The notes under the pieces: generated by a model | What the model was told of the DNA's origin: nothing | What the model saw: the letters and a program-made list of their open reading frames with translations, nothing else | Databases searched by the model: none | Source of the DNA: Candidatus Heimdallarchaeota archaeon | GTDB lineage: Archaea; Asgardarchaeota; Heimdallarchaeia; Heimdallarchaeales; Heimdallarchaeaceae | Assembly (NCBI GenBank): GCA_019057375.1 | Contig: DXJF01000019.1 | Coordinates: 1-49,631, forward strand | DNA length: 49,631 nucleotides | Direction: 5' to 3' | Shown here: piece after piece, positions 3,369 through 11,943 of the stretch | How the letters are laid out: every line of letters begins with the position of its first letter | Numbering within the stretch: position 1 is the stretch's first letter | Program-made: the position numbers and the translations under genes

Positions 3369-4094
3369 CTAATTGAAGAAGTAAAACAAATCGTATTTAT
3401 CTATGAAAATAAAGCTGATAATAAAACAAGTCCAAATTAGTAATCTAAAAAGATCAACCCATCTGAAAGAAATTTTTCTATAATGTGTTCTTCTCTGAAT
3501 TCCAAGACCTTTGAAGTATAAAGATTGAGCCAAGAATTCAGATCTATAGATAATTGACGCAATGAAAACAGCAAATACTCTTGGTAACCATCTCAAAAAA
3601 AACCCCTTAATTTCTCCCCTAATCTTTAAAGTTGTAAAGGTATCTTCAGCATCTTTTGCTATCCTTGGAATCATCATCAAAGCTAGAGAAGGAATCAACG
3701 CAATTTTAGTTGGGATTTTTAGTTTTTCAAAACTTCTAGTCAAGTCTGAAGGATTAACTATAGAAAAGAAAAAGGAAAAGCCTAATCCCCCTACAAGCAA
3801 ACGCATTAAGACACGATACGTAATTTCCCACCCTCCAAAGAGGTAAGTTAACCCACCTAGAAATATCAAAATTGGTAAAAGAGCCCATAAAATGCTTAAG
3901 GATCCTCTAATATTCTTAAAAATTACATTTTCAAAAATGATGAATATTAACAAAAGTGCTAACACCCAGTTTTTGTTTAGAATTAGAAATCCAAATTGAA
4001 TGGATATGATAACAATTCCAACTAATGGATGAATTTGAAGTTTATCAGGTTTATACAAAAAACCATCATAAATTCTCTTTAGCATAAAAGACAT
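3369..4094 (-). CDS. ecfT: ECF transporter transmembrane T component
   Basis: Hydrophobic protein with the EcfT/CbiQ pattern (PSDL..SFEKL.IP, IRG and FKG X-R-G-like motifs). It sits downstream of a tandem ABC ATPase and an S component. Confidence 0.82.
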   Translation of the reverse strand: MSFMLKRIYDGFLYKPDKLQIHPLVGIVIISIQFGFLILNKNWVLALLLIFIIFENVIFKNIRGSLSILWALLPILIFLGGLTYLFGGWEITYRVLMRLLVGGLGFSFFFSIVNPSDLTRSFEKLKIPTKIALIPSLALMMIPRIAKDAEDTFTTLKIRGEIKGFFLRWLPRVFAVFIASIIYRSEFLAQSLYFKGLGIQRRTHYRKISFRWVDLFRLLIWTCFIISFIFIDKYDLFYFFN

Positions 4095-5732
4095 CTATTC
4101 AGCCTCCTTAAGCAAAAAGTTGAATTCTTTAGGATTAAGAATTCTAGGAAGAGAGATACCTGTTTCTTTTTCTAGCTTTAGAATGTATCTTACAGTTTGA
4201 TTAGGTATCAAATTTGTATGTTTTTCCAACTCATATAGAACGTCTCGAGGTGGTCCATTTAGACATATATCTCCATTTTCAATAACAACCAATCTATCCA
4301 AAGATGTTACAATTCTAGGATCATTGGTTGCAAGAATGACCGTGTTTCCATTTTCTTTTGCTGTTTCAACTAATTCAAGTAGAATTCTTCGACCTTTTTT
4401 GTCCAAAGCAATTGTAGGTTCATCCAACAAAATAATATCTTCTTGAAAATAAAATGAGTTTATCAAAGCAAAAAGTCTCCTCTCTCCTTCACTCAAATGA
4501 TAGAGCTTCCTTTTCATCAGTTTTTGCATTTTAAATTTGTTATAAATTTCTATAACTTCCACATTATTTCTAAGTTGTCTTTCTAAATCTCTTAAGGGAG
4601 TAGGTCCAACTAGAAATAGTTTTGCGTTTTCAGGAACATATATGCAATCTTTTTTTCCCTTTCTGACATTCTTGATTTTTCTTCCTTTTATCCAGACTTC
4701 ACCTTTACTTGTTTTTTCAATTCCCAATATGATTTTCATCAAAGTAGATTTACCGCATCCATTTATCCCCATTAATCCTATTGATTCTCCTTTCTTGAAT
4801 TGAAGATCTACATCTTTCAATATCCATTCAGTTTTGTTGTTATATCTAAAATCTACCTTATTCAAAGAAATGGCTGTATCTTTAGATGTTTCATTATTTA
4901 ACTTGAACAGCTCAGAGATATCCACATTTTTAATTCTAGATATTATTCTTTTCAAATCTGCTTGACCTTCAAGAGAAATTATTTTTTCTTTATCTTTGAA
5001 ATCTATCAAAGATAGTTCTGGTGGGTCAATCTCTTCTAGCAAATCTATATTATTAGAGGGATGTCCGTCACTAACTATTTCCCCTTGTTTTAATATAACT
5101 AATCTATCAGCTTTTGTCACAATATAATCAAGACGGTGTTCAAAAGCAATTACTAAATGACCACTATCAGCAAGTTTTCTTAGCAGTTCAACCAGTTTGA
5201 CCTCTGTTTTTGGATCAATCCTTGCAATAGGTTCATCAAGAATAATGATGGGAGGAGCAAAAGCTAAAGCAGATGCTAAAAAAACTCTTTGCAATTCTCC
5301 AGAACTTAGCTCAGGGATTACTCTTCTTCGTAGGGAACTTATTTCAAGTTCAGCTAGGACTTGATTGAGTCTAGATAAAATTTCTTCAGAATCAAGAGCA
5401 AGATTTTCTAATAGAAAAACAATTTCCTCCTCAACTAATAATGATGTTGTAAAGTCACTTGGATATTGAGGAACATATCCTAGTAAACTAACAAGTTTTT
5501 CTCTTGTCAGCTCCTTGAAGGAAATTCCATTATAGGTGATTTCACCAGAAATGTCAGCTTCAGTAAAATTGGGAATTAAAGTCATCAGAATCTGAGCAAG
5601 GGTGCTTTTACCACTCCCACTAGGTCCTGCTATAACAACGAATTCTCCTTTAGATGCTTCAAAATTTATGTGTTTAAGTGCATCCTCATTACTTGTCATA
5701 TACCTGACAGTTAAATCGTTTATTTGAAGCAT
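4095..5732 (-). CDS. ecfA: ECF transporter ATPase with two fused ABC domains
   Basis: Two Walker A motifs (GPSGSGKST, GINGCGKST), signatures LSSGELQR and LSEGERR, Walker B LDEP twice, and no TM segments. Confidence 0.9.
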   Translation of the reverse strand: MLQINDLTVRYMTSNEDALKHINFEASKGEFVVIAGPSGSGKSTLAQILMTLIPNFTEADISGEITYNGISFKELTREKLVSLLGYVPQYPSDFTTSLLVEEEIVFLLENLALDSEEILSRLNQVLAELEISSLRRRVIPELSSGELQRVFLASALAFAPPIIILDEPIARIDPKTEVKLVELLRKLADSGHLVIAFEHRLDYIVTKADRLVILKQGEIVSDGHPSNNIDLLEEIDPPELSLIDFKDKEKIISLEGQADLKRIISRIKNVDISELFKLNNETSKDTAISLNKVDFRYNNKTEWILKDVDLQFKKGESIGLMGINGCGKSTLMKIILGIEKTSKGEVWIKGRKIKNVRKGKKDCIYVPENAKLFLVGPTPLRDLERQLRNNVEVIEIYNKFKMQKLMKRKLYHLSEGERRLFALINSFYFQEDIILLDEPTIALDKKGRRILLELVETAKENGNTVILATNDPRIVTSLDRLVVIENGDICLNGPPRDVLYELEKHTNLIPNQTVRYILKLEKETGISLPRILNPKEFNFLLKEAE

Positions 5733-5764: not shown

Positions 5765-6565
5765 TTATCCTTCCTCCGTTTCTGGTACCTCTTCCTCAGC
5801 AATTATTTCCTTTTCATATCGTTTTAATATTCCAAGTTCACTAAGATAGGATACTATAGGAATTGCAATAGCTGCACTCAGAACAACTTGAGCAATATTG
5901 AAAGGTATTTCTGATACAGCAGCTACAAGCAAATATTTTAGAACAACTGTTTCATAGAAGAAATAGCCTAAAACCATTAATGATCCTCCTGCTATGCAGG
6001 ATAAAGCCATTTCCCCTTTTTCCTTTAGGAAGAAGAGCACAAGTCCAATTACAATACTTAGAAATAATGCAATTATTAGAAAAGCATATCCTGGCACAGT
6101 AACAGAAAATTCTCTGCTACCATAAAACGCCATTCCAAAAATAAAATCTTGATTGACATAGAATGCAGAAAAACCTACTAAAGTTCCACATAGAGCAGCC
6201 ATAAACAGATACCTGATCCACTTCTTTAATCGGCGGCTATAGTGGAAAATTACTCCTACAACAAATCCTTCTATACCTTTGATGATTAATGTACCTGGCG
6301 CAAAAACGCCATACCCTAAAGCAACATCTGCTAACATCGCTCCCATTCCTCCTGCGATGGCACCTGTGATTGGACCTCCAATTAGAGCAGCTAAATAAAC
6401 AAAAATTTCTCCAATGTTAAAGAACCCATTAGACGTAGGGATAGCTATAAAGAAGATTGATGTAGAAAGAAATACCAATCCCGTAAAAGTAACAATTAAC
6501 GCTATGTTTCTTACTGAATTTACTTCACGAATTAGACTTTGTCGTAAACCTACTTCTTGCTCCAT
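5765..6565 (-). CDS. ECF substrate-binding S component (HmpT/PdxU2-like family), enlarged
   Basis: IPTSNGFFNIGE...GGPITGAIAGGMGAMLAD..LGYGVFAPGTLIIKGIEG...EIPFNIAQ pattern. It is the first gene of an S-A-T operon. Confidence 0.8.
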   Translation of the reverse strand: MEQEVGLRQSLIREVNSVRNIALIVTFTGLVFLSTSIFFIAIPTSNGFFNIGEIFVYLAALIGGPITGAIAGGMGAMLADVALGYGVFAPGTLIIKGIEGFVVGVIFHYSRRLKKWIRYLFMAALCGTLVGFSAFYVNQDFIFGMAFYGSREFSVTVPGYAFLIIALFLSIVIGLVLFFLKEKGEMALSCIAGGSLMVLGYFFYETVVLKYLLVAAVSEIPFNIAQVVLSAAIAIPIVSYLSELGILKRYEKEIIAEEEVPETEEG

Positions 6566-6663
6566 TCATAACACACTCTTTAGGATATTCAAGTTACAAC
6601 TTGAATAATTTATTATAACTGTTTTGGTATATATTTAAGCCATAAAAATTTTTATAAGTAATT

Positions 6664-6719
6664 TTTTCGATAACTTTAGTTTTCTAAAGAATTTTCGATA
6701 ACTTTAGTTTTCTAAAGAA
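6664..6719. repeat. Perfect tandem duplication of a 28-bp unit, each copy containing the palindrome CTTTAG-N4-CTAAAG (operator-like)
   Basis: TTTTCGATAACTTTAGTTTTCTAAAGAA occurs at 6664-6691 and 6692-6719, in the divergent intergenic region between the ECF operon and the Cys-rich ORF. Confidence 0.9.
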
Positions 6720-6764
6720 GTAACTATTAATAAATATGTACTTCCCAGAATCTTGGCGAAACCT

Positions 6765-7085
6765 ATGAAGGCAAGAAATCTATTTATCGGCTTAAGCTTG
6801 GCGGTTCTTTTGATTTTTACAATGCAGCTCGCATCCTCAAATCAAACAATTAGTAATGGTAACGAATATTTCTTATTCTTCAGTTCTGGAGATACTGATC
6901 ATGAGCAAATCCATGAAAGATATCAACTAAACAATCGTTTAGGAGATTGTGATTGTGGGTGTGAATGTGAGTGCGAATGTGAGTGCAATTGTGAGTGCAA
7001 TTGTGATAATGTTTGTGATCAAATACTAGACAGAATTAGAGACAGAATTAAAGACAAATTACAAGATGGAAGTTGTAAAGATTAG
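6765..7085 (+). CDS. Small secreted Cys-rich protein with a (Cys-X)10 tract
   Basis: Signal-peptide-like start MKARNLFIGLSLAVLLIFTMQLASS (ATG 6765; the ORF track starts at TTG 6753). Contains CDCGCECECECECNCECNC and a C-terminal DRIRDRIKDKLQDGSC. A T-rich tract follows. Confidence 0.7.
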   Translation: MKARNLFIGLSLAVLLIFTMQLASSNQTISNGNEYFLFFSSGDTDHEQIHERYQLNNRLGDCDCGCECECECECNCECNCDNVCDQILDRIRDRIKDKLQDGSCKD

Positions 7086-7151: not shown

Positions 7152-8495
7152 TTAAAGAAAATCTATAAGATTTCTCATTTTTTCCAAGGTTTCAAATCCT
7201 TTCTTTGTAACTTTGAACTCCTTAATTTTGGTGTTTTGTCCAAATAACACTATCAAGCCTTTCTCTTGAAGTTCATTCAGATGCTGATAAATAGATTGTT
7301 TAGATTTAGCTCGTCCTAAGGATTCCCACAGAGAAATTCCATAAGTCGCTTTGCCTTCTGAAATAAGATTCAATATCTCAAATTTAGTTGTTGAACTTTC
7401 AGACAAACCCCAAACAACTTTTCTTTTATCTCTTAATTGAGAGGCATAGATATTGAGTGCATTAAAGCCAGATCCAGAAAGAATCGCAACACTATTTGGG
7501 GGATTTATTTCTTCTTCTTTAATCAGCTCATCAGCAGCTACTAAAACAGAAGCTGAAGCTGGTTCAATAAACAATCCTTCTTTTCTGGAAAGATTCAAAG
7601 CTTTCTCAATCATCTGTTGAGCATCAATTTCTATCTCTTTTCCTTTAGAAAACTTAATTGTCTCTCGTACTTCCTCTAAAAGAAAAGGTTGCTCTATTTC
7701 TAAGGATTCAGCCAAGTAAGCACTCTTTGTTTTCTCTAAAGATATTGCATAAATTCTGGGGAGTTCTTCTATCCATCCTGAAGCAAGTGCATCTTCTAGA
7801 CCCCTATAAATTGAATATATAAGAGATCCAGATCCTCTAGGTATAATTAATGCATCAAAAAACTCTTTTTGTAAAGCTATTTCTAAGCCTAAGGTTTTTT
7901 GACCTTCAATAGCTAAAATATTGTTTTCAGGAGTTGCTAAATAGGCATTTACTGCTTTACTAAGCCTTTTCGCTTCAGCAATAGATTCTTCAACAGAATC
8001 GCCCATTTCGATTACGTTACTTCCATAAACCTTCATTTGTTCAATTTTAGAAAGTTCTAAATTCTGAGGAATTACATTTTGAGATTTTATTCCAGCTTTT
8101 GCTGCATAAGCAGATAAACTGATGCCAAAAGAGCCTGTACTTGCGCCAATTACTTGGGAGCTTTTATTCTTAACAGCATCTGAAATTATCAGAGAACTAG
8201 CTCTATCTCTAAAGGATCCAGTAGGATTTCTGAATTCTAGCTTCAAACTTAAATCAGCAAGATTCTCTATATTCTTAACTTCAATAAGTGGTGTGTTACC
8301 CTCATACAAAGAAATAGGCTTTGCATATTCTGGAAGAAAATCTCTAAAAGACCACATAGATGTGAGAGAAATATCAGATTTAGATGGACCTCGAATTGGA
8401 GTTACAGATAGCAGTTTCTCACAAGTAGGACAACGTAATGAATCCCCTATAAGTAAACTTCCGCACTCTTGACAACTATCTGGTTTTCTCCACAT
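7152..8495 (-). CDS. Zn-ribbon + threonine-synthase-like (PLP fold type II) domain + C-terminal winged-helix domain; catalytic Lys replaced by Arg
   Basis: N-terminal CQEC...CPTC, SLYEGNTPL, NPTGSFRDR, EGQKT, IPRGSGS, EGLFIEPASA. The C-terminus (TKFEILNLIS...SKQSIYQHLNELQEKGLI...VTKKG) has the ArsR/PadR-type wHTH pattern. Confidence 0.85.
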   Translation of the reverse strand: MWRKPDSCQECGSLLIGDSLRCPTCEKLLSVTPIRGPSKSDISLTSMWSFRDFLPEYAKPISLYEGNTPLIEVKNIENLADLSLKLEFRNPTGSFRDRASSLIISDAVKNKSSQVIGASTGSFGISLSAYAAKAGIKSQNVIPQNLELSKIEQMKVYGSNVIEMGDSVEESIAEAKRLSKAVNAYLATPENNILAIEGQKTLGLEIALQKEFFDALIIPRGSGSLIYSIYRGLEDALASGWIEELPRIYAISLEKTKSAYLAESLEIEQPFLLEEVRETIKFSKGKEIEIDAQQMIEKALNLSRKEGLFIEPASASVLVAADELIKEEEINPPNSVAILSGSGFNALNIYASQLRDKRKVVWGLSESSTTKFEILNLISEGKATYGISLWESLGRAKSKQSIYQHLNELQEKGLIVLFGQNTKIKEFKVTKKGFETLEKMRNLIDFL

Positions 8496-8543
8496 CTAAA
8501 AATAATAGGTAAAAATCTATTATAACTGTATTGTATATGCTCT

Positions 8544-11247: not shown

Positions 11248-11943
11248 TTAAGAATCCAATATCTCTTCTATCCTCTTTCTATCTTTTTCTTCTAGAAGAT
11301 CAAGTCCCTTAATATTTTCCTTCTCAAATCTTTGAAGGAATATACATTTCTCATGATGCCATCGATAGTTTAGGTGATCTTCAAAATAATGAGGTTCGCC
11401 TATTCTTACAGTATCCTTCTCAATATTTGAACCACACTTTCTGCATTTGGCACGACTGCTTTTAGCATATTCAATTTTCCACTTCTCTTCTCTGTCATAC
11501 ATAGTAGGTTTAAAATCCTGATTTTCCATGATAGAATTAATAATCTCATGGGGATTCCCTCCTTCTAACGCATTTTTGTCTATCTTCAAGTGGAATGTAT
11601 CGTGATTGGACATAATGAAAGCCAGTTGTGCGGGTTTATTAATAATAAGCTTTTTCTCCACCATGATTTTAGGAGGTAATTTTTCGAAATCAATAATATA
11701 TTTTGCACAAGCTTTTGACATTAATTTACTCAGTTCTCTTTTATTCATTGGTTGAAGCTTATTGCCATCAATTATTCCATAAGTGGTTTGAATGACTGTT
11801 CTATCTATGTCATCAATGTATTCACGTTCTTTGAAAACAACAAAGGATCTATCTGGAATTTCATCTGTAATCTCTACAATTTGAAATGAATCAGGATCAA
11901 TGAAGTGTCCCCATTCATTATCGGAATCAAGATTAATCTTCAT
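11248..11943 (-). CDS. Hypothetical protein with a C-terminal PARP-type zinc finger
   Basis: WKIEYAKSSRAKCRKCGSNIEKDTVRIG...RWHHEKC at 11344-11481. Confidence 0.8.
   Translation of the reverse strand: MKINLDSDNEWGHFIDPDSFQIVEITDEIPDRSFVVFKEREYIDDIDRTVIQTTYGIIDGNKLQPMNKRELSKLMSKACAKYIIDFEKLPPKIMVEKKLIINKPAQLAFIMSNHDTFHLKIDKNALEGGNPHEIINSIMENQDFKPTMYDREEKWKIEYAKSSRAKCRKCGSNIEKDTVRIGEPHYFEDHLNYRWHHEKCIFLQRFEKENIKGLDLLEEKDRKRIEEILDS

Follow-up and report, generated by a model that had tools for sequence, protein, structure and literature searches.

The window, a 49,631-nt stretch of DNA from a Candidatus Heimdallarchaeota archaeon, has a G+C content of 29-36% in 2-kb windows. On its reverse strand lies a gene for a protein resembling threonine synthase (ThrC), whose closest relatives come from the Asgard archaea Candidatus Heimdallarchaeaceae (up to 91% identity). 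Downstream on the same strand follow genes for the S component, the ATPase and the T component of an ECF transporter, and a candidate operator precedes the first of these (Table 1). We argue below that the ThrC-like protein is a regulator of this operon, and refer to it by that name.

Table 1. Features of the regulator gene and the adjacent ECF operon, with positions in the window.
Feature	Position	Strand	Basis or remark
Probable ECF T component, weak CbiQ match	3369..4094	-	PF02361, E 3.7e-4, below cut-off
Fused A-A' ECF ATPase, two ABC domains	4095..5732	-	PF00005 twice; TIGR04520 and TIGR04521 below cut-off
ECF S component, HmpT/PdxU2-like, putative B6 vitamer binding subunit, predicted target	5765..6565	-	PF07155, E 5.9e-25
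Candidate operator, perfect 18-nt palindrome TTCAAGTTGTAACTTGAA (coding strand), core AAGTT-N2-AACTT	6588..6605	.	
TATA-like box of the ECF operon, TTATAATA (coding strand)	6611..6618	-	Putative promoter role
Proposed regulator gene, 447 aa plus stop	7152..8495	-	Zinc ribbon, apparently dead ThrC-like PLP domain, PadR-type wHTH
C-terminal PadR-type wHTH, residues 365-447	7155..7403	-	Pfam, AF2 model
Fold-type-II PLP (PALP) domain, residues 61-341, ThrC-like	7473..8315	-	Pfam PF00291, E 3.8e-55
AGA codon, Arg96 at the Schiff-base Lys position (K61 of T. thermophilus ThrC)	8208..8210	-	
N-terminal Cys4 zinc ribbon (C8, C11, C22, C25)	8421..8474	-	Conservation and alignment with archaeal ThrC

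An earlier note on this DNA had proposed that a winged-helix domain of approximately 80 residues is fused to the C-terminus of the ThrC-like domain, and our analysis bears this out. The tail of the window protein itself has weak Pfam matches only (HTH_45 and PadR, residues 374-445), scoring 18.8 bits against PadR PF03551, for which the cut-off is 27. Among 100 relatives, 93 match PadR at E ≤ 1e-3, the best at 3.1e-15. In an AF2 model built on 100 relatives (mean pLDDT 89.3), residues 366-446 form a helix-helix-helix-strand-strand-helix succession that fits a wHTH in its secondary structure, preceded by a low-confidence linker at 356-364. The best solved folds for the model are the threonine synthases 6nmx, 2zsj and 1v7c (Foldseek E ~1e-22), with a TM-score normalised to the target of ~0.81; a sequence search of the PDB returned no solved structure for any member of the fused family. 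Within the N-terminal zinc ribbon, which is also present in alignments of true archaeal ThrC proteins, C25 is invariant among the 100 relatives and C8, C11 and C22 are conserved in at least 90%.

Modeling of the protein as a homodimer gave a score of 0.80 against 0.00 for the best control, with three runs agreeing in at least 45% of contacts, a partner pLDDT of at least 80 and an interface running through the PLP domain. Among the calibration proteins, that mark was attained by 20 of the 30 whose solved structure pairs two copies of one chain and by 1 of the 23 with a single-chain structure. Because ThrC dimers have already been solved, this pass may only mirror the likeness to ThrC.

Translation of the reading frame confirms that the fold-type-II motif NPTGSFKDR, which in ThrC contains the Schiff-base Lys, reads NPTGSFRDR in this protein, as the earlier note had stated. 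The motif starts at residue 90, and R96 is encoded by AGA. This codon differs by one base from the Lys codon AAA. Alignment to ThrC supports two further readings made at the same time: ASTGS (S122) stands where ThrC has ASTGN, and the Gly-rich loop is kept, with IPRGSGSL aligning to the ThrC phosphate loop VGNAGN. We mapped the pocket by alignment to the ThrC of T. thermophilus, whose Schiff-base Lys is K61. Alongside the Gly-rich loop, the positions F60 (F95) and T317 (S340) are kept, which together would presumably preserve a cofactor pocket made of a ring-stacking Phe, a phosphate-binding loop and a Ser or Thr at the pyridine N1. By contrast, K61 is replaced by R96, N87 by S122, T88 by F123, N154 by T188, S155 by P189 and R160 by A195. 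In the T. thermophilus enzyme, N87, T88, N154, S155 and R160 serve as substrate or O3' contacts.

The same division extends to the family as a whole. On the cofactor side, F60 is conserved in 92% of members, G86 in 99% and N87 in 74%, the loop glycines in 95-100%, and T317 is Thr in 91% and Ser in 6%. By alignment, the cofactor contacts are conserved family-wide, and the substrate contacts are replaced in the window protein. Arg cannot form an aldimine, so the affinity for PLP is uncertain. We also considered whether another Lys might occupy the active site, an objection that the earlier note had itself raised. A conservation scan of the PLP domain found no family-specific conserved Lys, and Lys 85, 150 and 200 are equally conserved in true enzymes; a migrated catalytic Lys is therefore unsupported.

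The Arg is not peculiar to this assembly, another possibility that had been raised. It occurs together with the tail in about 96 Asgard proteins (Heimdall, Loki/Promethearchaeota, Thor and Hod), and because it is kept in every Asgard orthologue at 40-91% identity, it reflects neither chance nor a sequencing slip. Whether the replacement accompanies the fusion, a check that the earlier note had suggested, can be answered from an exhaustive search reduced to 50%-identity representatives, which yielded 95 full-length tail-bearing and 58 full-length tail-less proteins. The Schiff-base Lys is missing in 92 of the 95 tail-bearing representatives, whereas all 58 tail-less proteins keep it. The column in the tail-bearing set holds Arg (28), Ile (27), Leu (14), Val (7), Thr (5), Met (4), Lys (3) and single others, Phe among them. 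In a FastTree tree of the PLP domain, a branch supported at 0.97-0.99 separates all tail-bearing proteins from the rest. Because they form one clade, the fusion arose once, accompanied by loss of the Lys. This clade splits into an Arg-rich subclade, with a few Lys forms nested inside it, and a subclade with Ile, Leu, Val or Met. The few tail-bearing members that keep Lys adjoin the same target genes and have the same operator, both described below, so loss of the Lys is not obligatory in the family.

These relationships bear on annotation. The best NCBIfam model for the window protein is NF004170 (PRK05638), an 'equivalog' named "threonine synthase", which is matched at positions 42-441 of 442 and so takes in the wHTH tail. 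The window protein scores 279.9 bits against this model, under the cut-off of 421, which makes it a diverged Asgard branch of the NF004170 superfamily; of 301 genomes in the phylum, just 6 reach the cut-off. It also falls short of TIGR00260 (thrC; 89.6 bits, cut-off 167.1) and, likewise, of every other ThrC model. A separate canonical thrC lies on another contig of the same genome (C44) and exceeds the TIGR00260 cut-off at 190.9 bits. The Thermococcales fusion mentioned in the earlier note does exist: a protein encoded in a Thermococcus genome matches NF004170 over its full length at 784.8 bits, reads NPTGSFRDR and has the wHTH tail. Together, these findings suggest that the functional name of NF004170 is probably wrong, in agreement with the suspicion that the window protein is liable to be mis-annotated as threonine synthase. 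We flag this as a systematic mis-annotation of NF004170 members, through which threonine-pathway calls would be inflated in metabolic reconstructions of Asgard and other archaea.

The gene neighborhoods of family members point toward vitamin B6. A Leu variant lies immediately upstream of pdxS-pdxT at locus L019, and an Ile variant lies immediately upstream of an S-ATPase-T module resembling that of the window at L020; members at L020, L025, L031 and L046 adjoin a PF07155 S gene. The members adjoining pdxS-pdxT or an S gene at these and other loci are at 26-40% identity. The S gene is found 1 kb from the regulator in Promethearchaeum and 7 kb from it in Lokiarchaeum. Overall, an S gene or pdxST is nearby in 8 of 13 distinct tail-bearing loci, compared with none of the ~70 loci of tail-less ThrC, these controls being true ThrC genes that made up the bulk of a related-loci scan of genome contigs.

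A further sample of 30 Asgard loci with 1.5-kb flanks contains an S gene or pdxST in 21, of which 7 are Leu variants divergent from pdxST and 14 are Arg, Lys or Ser variants beside S genes. Another Asgard family shows a divergent S gene in 6/6 loci. Within the window's own genus, 15 other genomes show the regulator followed by the S gene in nine and by pdxS in one, and in some genomes there is a pair of paralogues, with a separate S gene for each. Roughly one third of the family's loci have no B6 gene within the flanks examined, and none lies within 6 kb on either side of the Thermococcus NF004170 gene. No threonine- or cysteine-pathway gene recurs beside family members. One relative (L017) adjoins an aminotransferase gene. 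The association of the family with pdxST and S genes is found across Asgard archaea and Thermoproteota.

The order of the S, ATPase and T genes downstream of the regulator is identical at L020. The only significant PDB relative of the S component is 4hzu_S, the HmpT protein of L. brevis (E 1.3e-8), and HmpT carries pyridoxamine (PMC4860826). Its Pfam family PF07155 includes PdxU and PdxU2/HmpT (PMC9997740). This family is named for riboflavin transporters and also includes riboflavin S components, so the substrate assigned to the S gene rests on one weak PDB match and on the operator shared with pdxST. On these grounds we describe the ECF module of the window as a putative B6 vitamer importer. 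The window's genome, which is 89% complete, yielded no pdxS and no PF08543 pyridoxal kinase that could phosphorylate an imported vitamer, and this counts against the B6 reading.

The candidate operator lies 23 nt upstream of the ATG of the S gene, directly after the TATA-like box. This box falls within a 23-nt element (6604-6626, family D7) that is 87% identical to an element upstream of the regulator (8511-8533). In its extended 14-nt form, CAAGTT-N2-AACTTG, the motif occurs once in the 3.47-Mb genome, and the palindrome is kept in all ten same-genus loci that have an S gene. Exact matches to AAGTT-N2-AACTT number 28 across 328 kb of Asgard loci. All of them are confined to the 5.9 kb that precede S or pdxS genes, and the other 322 kb contain none; because these loci are related and not independent, such enrichment figures overstate the statistics and should be read as a pattern, not as a P-value. 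In other Asgard lineages the core again precedes S genes and pdxS, frequently in two copies spaced 16-25 nt apart, and in Lokiarchaeum ossiferum it stands upstream of the S gene, 7 kb from the regulator. The Ile/Leu clade has a variant, AGGyT-N2-ArCTT, between two TATA-like boxes (e.g. CCTATATATAGGCTCAAAGTTATATAT), and this variant is common to Asgard and Thermoproteota loci.

Genomes lacking the regulator served as controls. Five Asgard genomes have no tail-bearing protein; in the four of these with a full-length pdxS match, the motif is absent upstream of pdxS, and the fifth contains only pdxS fragments. We rejected another candidate operator, a tandem 28-nt repeat with CTTTAG-N4-CTAAAG palindromes (6664-6719), because it is kept only in loci that also carry a divergent Cys-rich ORF. 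The two closest relatives (L137 and L145) lack it; there the S gene lies directly 3' of the regulator and AAGTT-N2-AACTT alone remains. A search for other regulon members in the window's genome gave 12 further AAGTT-N2-AACTT sites, mostly inside ORFs and none linked to B6; two of them lie upstream of a PAS/response-regulator gene or of ORFs without a Pfam match. Autoregulation was likewise set aside for the window, where the region upstream of the regulator has the shared TATA-like element and no operator.

We consider it likely that the protein, a pseudoenzyme derived from ThrC rather than a working threonine synthase, represses the ECF importer operon as a dimer in response to B6. On this view, a duplicate copy of an archaeal ThrC would have kept its fold, dimer interface and cofactor pocket, lost the Schiff-base Lys (to Arg here) along with substrate-binding residues, and gained the C-terminal PadR-type winged helix. 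The resulting dimer is predicted to bind the palindrome, which separates the TATA-like box from the beginning of the operon. When B6 is plentiful, a vitamer, most likely non-covalently bound PLP, would fill the pocket and cause the operator to be occupied, which would block transcription initiation and switch off B6 uptake. Family members may in this way regulate uptake in the window's genome and synthesis elsewhere. The analysis establishes by computation the architecture, the residue pattern, the single origin of the family, its linkage to pdxST and S genes, and the operator motif and where it occurs, whereas the nature of the effector, the direction of control and the attachment to DNA are inferred. 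The earlier note had proposed a ligand-sensing transcription factor built from a fold-type-II domain, a reading now supported by the pattern of fusion and Lys loss, the single clade and the separate thrC. We refine it in two respects: loss of the Lys is not obligatory, and the operator common to pdxS-pdxT and the S genes points to a B6 vitamer, rather than an amino acid, as the most likely ligand.

Could the protein still be an enzyme? Its fold and many ThrC motifs are intact, NF004170 'threonine synthase' is matched end to end, and a few tail-bearing relatives keep the Lys, all of which would suit a threonine synthase or another beta/gamma-replacement PLP enzyme in which the role of the Lys has been taken over, or a bifunctional protein. 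We regard this as highly improbable, however, given that 92 of the 95 representatives have Arg, Ile, Leu, Val, Thr, Met, Phe or another non-Lys residue without a compensating family-specific Lys, that N87, T88, N154, S155 and R160 are all replaced in the window protein, and that all curated ThrC cut-offs are missed. The canonical thrC elsewhere in the genome and the presence of B6 genes, not threonine-pathway genes, as neighbors argue in the same direction. A regulator that instead detects threonine, O-phosphohomoserine, serine, cysteine or some comparable amino acid or pathway intermediate in its dead pocket, with an ECF cargo other than B6, would fit the descent of the sensor domain from an amino-acid enzyme, the naming of PF07155 for riboflavin transporters and the aminotransferase gene beside the L017 relative. 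Yet a single operator precedes both the S genes and pdxS-pdxT, which are unambiguous PLP synthase genes; the cofactor contacts are conserved family-wide while the substrate contacts are replaced in the window protein; and no threonine or cysteine pathway gene recurs beside members. We therefore think amino-acid sensing quite unlikely.

The direction of control is a separate question from the ligand. Operators between the TATA box and the start are the usual repressor placement in archaeal regulators. The candidate operator separates the TATA-like box from the start codon or, in other loci, stands between two divergent TATA-like boxes, and this placement favors a repressor over an activator as a positional inference only. 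The opposite arrangement, in which the protein activates under B6 scarcity or responds in its apo form instead of acting as a ligand-bound repressor, seems to us unlikely, though sequence does not reveal the sign of regulation. A precedent comes from bacterial PdxR, which activates pdxST and is inactivated by PLP, as cited in PMC9997740 and PMC5320631.

Beyond the B6-responsive repressor proposed for the window, the family may represent a general archaeal B6 sensor in which the residue at the old Lys position tunes the vitamer that is read, an extension that we find possible yet doubtful. In the Asgard sample, the seven Leu-variant loci adjoin pdxST (synthesis), whereas the Arg, Lys and Ser variants adjoin an ECF S gene (uptake); Ile/Leu variants of one family (f11) also adjoin an ECF S gene. 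If such tuning occurs, Lys would correspond to covalent PLP and Arg or a hydrophobic residue to non-covalent PLP, paralogues could separately gauge PLP and unphosphorylated or amine vitamers, and Archaea would possess a two-channel B6 homeostat made from a dead amino-acid enzyme.

A full-text literature search, with subscription journals outside its coverage, returned no description of the fused family, and a full-text search likewise returned no described regulator of archaeal vitamin B6 metabolism. Our analysis contributes an operator traced across lineages, controls from genomes without the regulator, a tree and a residue map. If the proposed mechanism is correct, the gap in archaeal B6 regulation would be filled by an independent invention, in which a fold-type-II PLP enzyme was turned into a sensor. 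It offers AAGTT-N2-AACTT as an operator that can be tested and predicts a regulon of pdxST and the ECF importer across Asgard archaea, Thermoproteota and Thermococcales. The predicted regulon would also provide functional evidence for archaeal PF07155 S components as B6 transporters, in what is a poorly studied area of transport (PMC9997740).

Among known systems, the MocR/GabR/PdxR regulators (PMC5320631) offer a close parallel in logic: they fuse a PLP-enzyme fold, used as a sensor, to a winged helix and are dimeric, as is predicted for the window regulator. Their repeated or palindromic operator boxes near the promoter are analogous to the candidate operator, and their targets to those predicted here, namely pdxST and PdxU-type ECF B6 transporters. 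The parts themselves differ. MocR proteins have an N-terminal GntR-type wHTH and a fold-type-I (aminotransferase) domain with its PLP-binding Lys retained, whereas the window regulator has a C-terminal PadR-type wHTH and a fold-type-II (ThrC) domain with a zinc ribbon, in which the Lys is lost in most family members. MocR regulators are reported to be absent from Archaea (PMC5320631). The two families are independent inventions.

With ThrC itself (TIGR00260; 1UIM, 2ZSJ, 6NMX) the regulator shares the fold, the NPTGSF-x-DR motif, the Gly-rich phosphate loop and the dimer-type interface, and with archaeal ThrC the zinc ribbon as well. It departs from ThrC in the change of Lys to Arg, in the replacement of the substrate contacts N87, T88, N154, S155 and R160, in its extra DNA-binding domain and in its B6-gene neighbors. 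NF004170 (PRK05638) resembles it in the whole architecture, tail included, and the Thermococcus member also has Arg at the Lys site.

Archaea have other vitamin regulators derived from enzymes: ThiR joins a ThiN domain to a wHTH and responds to thiamine, and RbkR joins a riboflavin kinase to a wHTH. Like these, the proposed regulator would reuse a vitamin-related domain as a sensor, fused to a wHTH, to control genes for synthesis and uptake of the vitamin. It differs from them in its fold and its vitamin, and in that the sensor of ThiR and RbkR is a domain of the vitamin's own pathway, whereas here it would come from an enzyme that uses the cofactor.

Two repeated elements lie close to the ECF transporter operon, the predicted target of the probably B6-responsive regulator. 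Within the perfect tandem duplication, each copy of the 28-nt unit contains the palindrome CTTTAG-N4-CTAAAG, which is absent from the rest of the 3.47-Mb genome. A single copy of the unit is kept in same-genus loci, only in those with a divergent Cys-rich ORF. The repeat is probably an operator for another factor that acts on this ORF. The two copies of a 23-nt element are 87% identical, with one upstream of the regulator gene and the other upstream of the ECF S gene. They are unlikely to be operators and more likely reflect a BRE/TATA promoter layout that the two genes share.

Features of the regulator locus and its surroundings
Feature	Position	Strand	Details
23-nt element	8511-8533 and 6604-6626		two copies, containing TTATAATA
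Tandem duplication	6664-6719		perfect; 28-nt unit TTTTCGATAACTTTAGTTTTCTAAAGAA
Cys-rich ORF	6753-7085	+	110 aa; signal-peptide-like N-terminus; Cys/Asp/Glu-rich repeat CDCGCECECECECNCECNCD
12-nt tandem repeat	6945-7004		encodes the Cys/Asp/Glu-rich repeat
PARP-type zinc finger ORF	11248-11943	-	231 aa; C-terminal domain, PF00645, E 1.8e-16

The Cys-rich ORF and the ECF operon are divergently oriented. Its product, which gave no match in a Pfam search and has positional counterparts of like character in same-genus genomes, may be a secreted metal-binding peptide.

Pairing of regulator and S gene recurs in the Asgard genome G134, which encodes two paralogous Ile-variant regulators (L134, L161 and related loci), each divergent from a PF07155 S gene of its own; both pairs carry a CCTATATATAGG...TTATATAT element.

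Neither pdxS (PF01680) nor a PF08543 pyridoxal/HMP kinase was found in the organism's own assembly (89% complete), although it has nine genes with a PALP domain and further PLP enzymes besides. If these absences are real, the organism would be a B6 auxotroph in which imported vitamers are phosphorylated without a PF08543 kinase. In a same-genus genome (locus L139), pdxS adjoins the regulator.

Elsewhere on the contig, the PARP-type zinc finger is noteworthy for an Asgard genome, as this domain is usually linked to DNA-nick sensing in eukaryotes.
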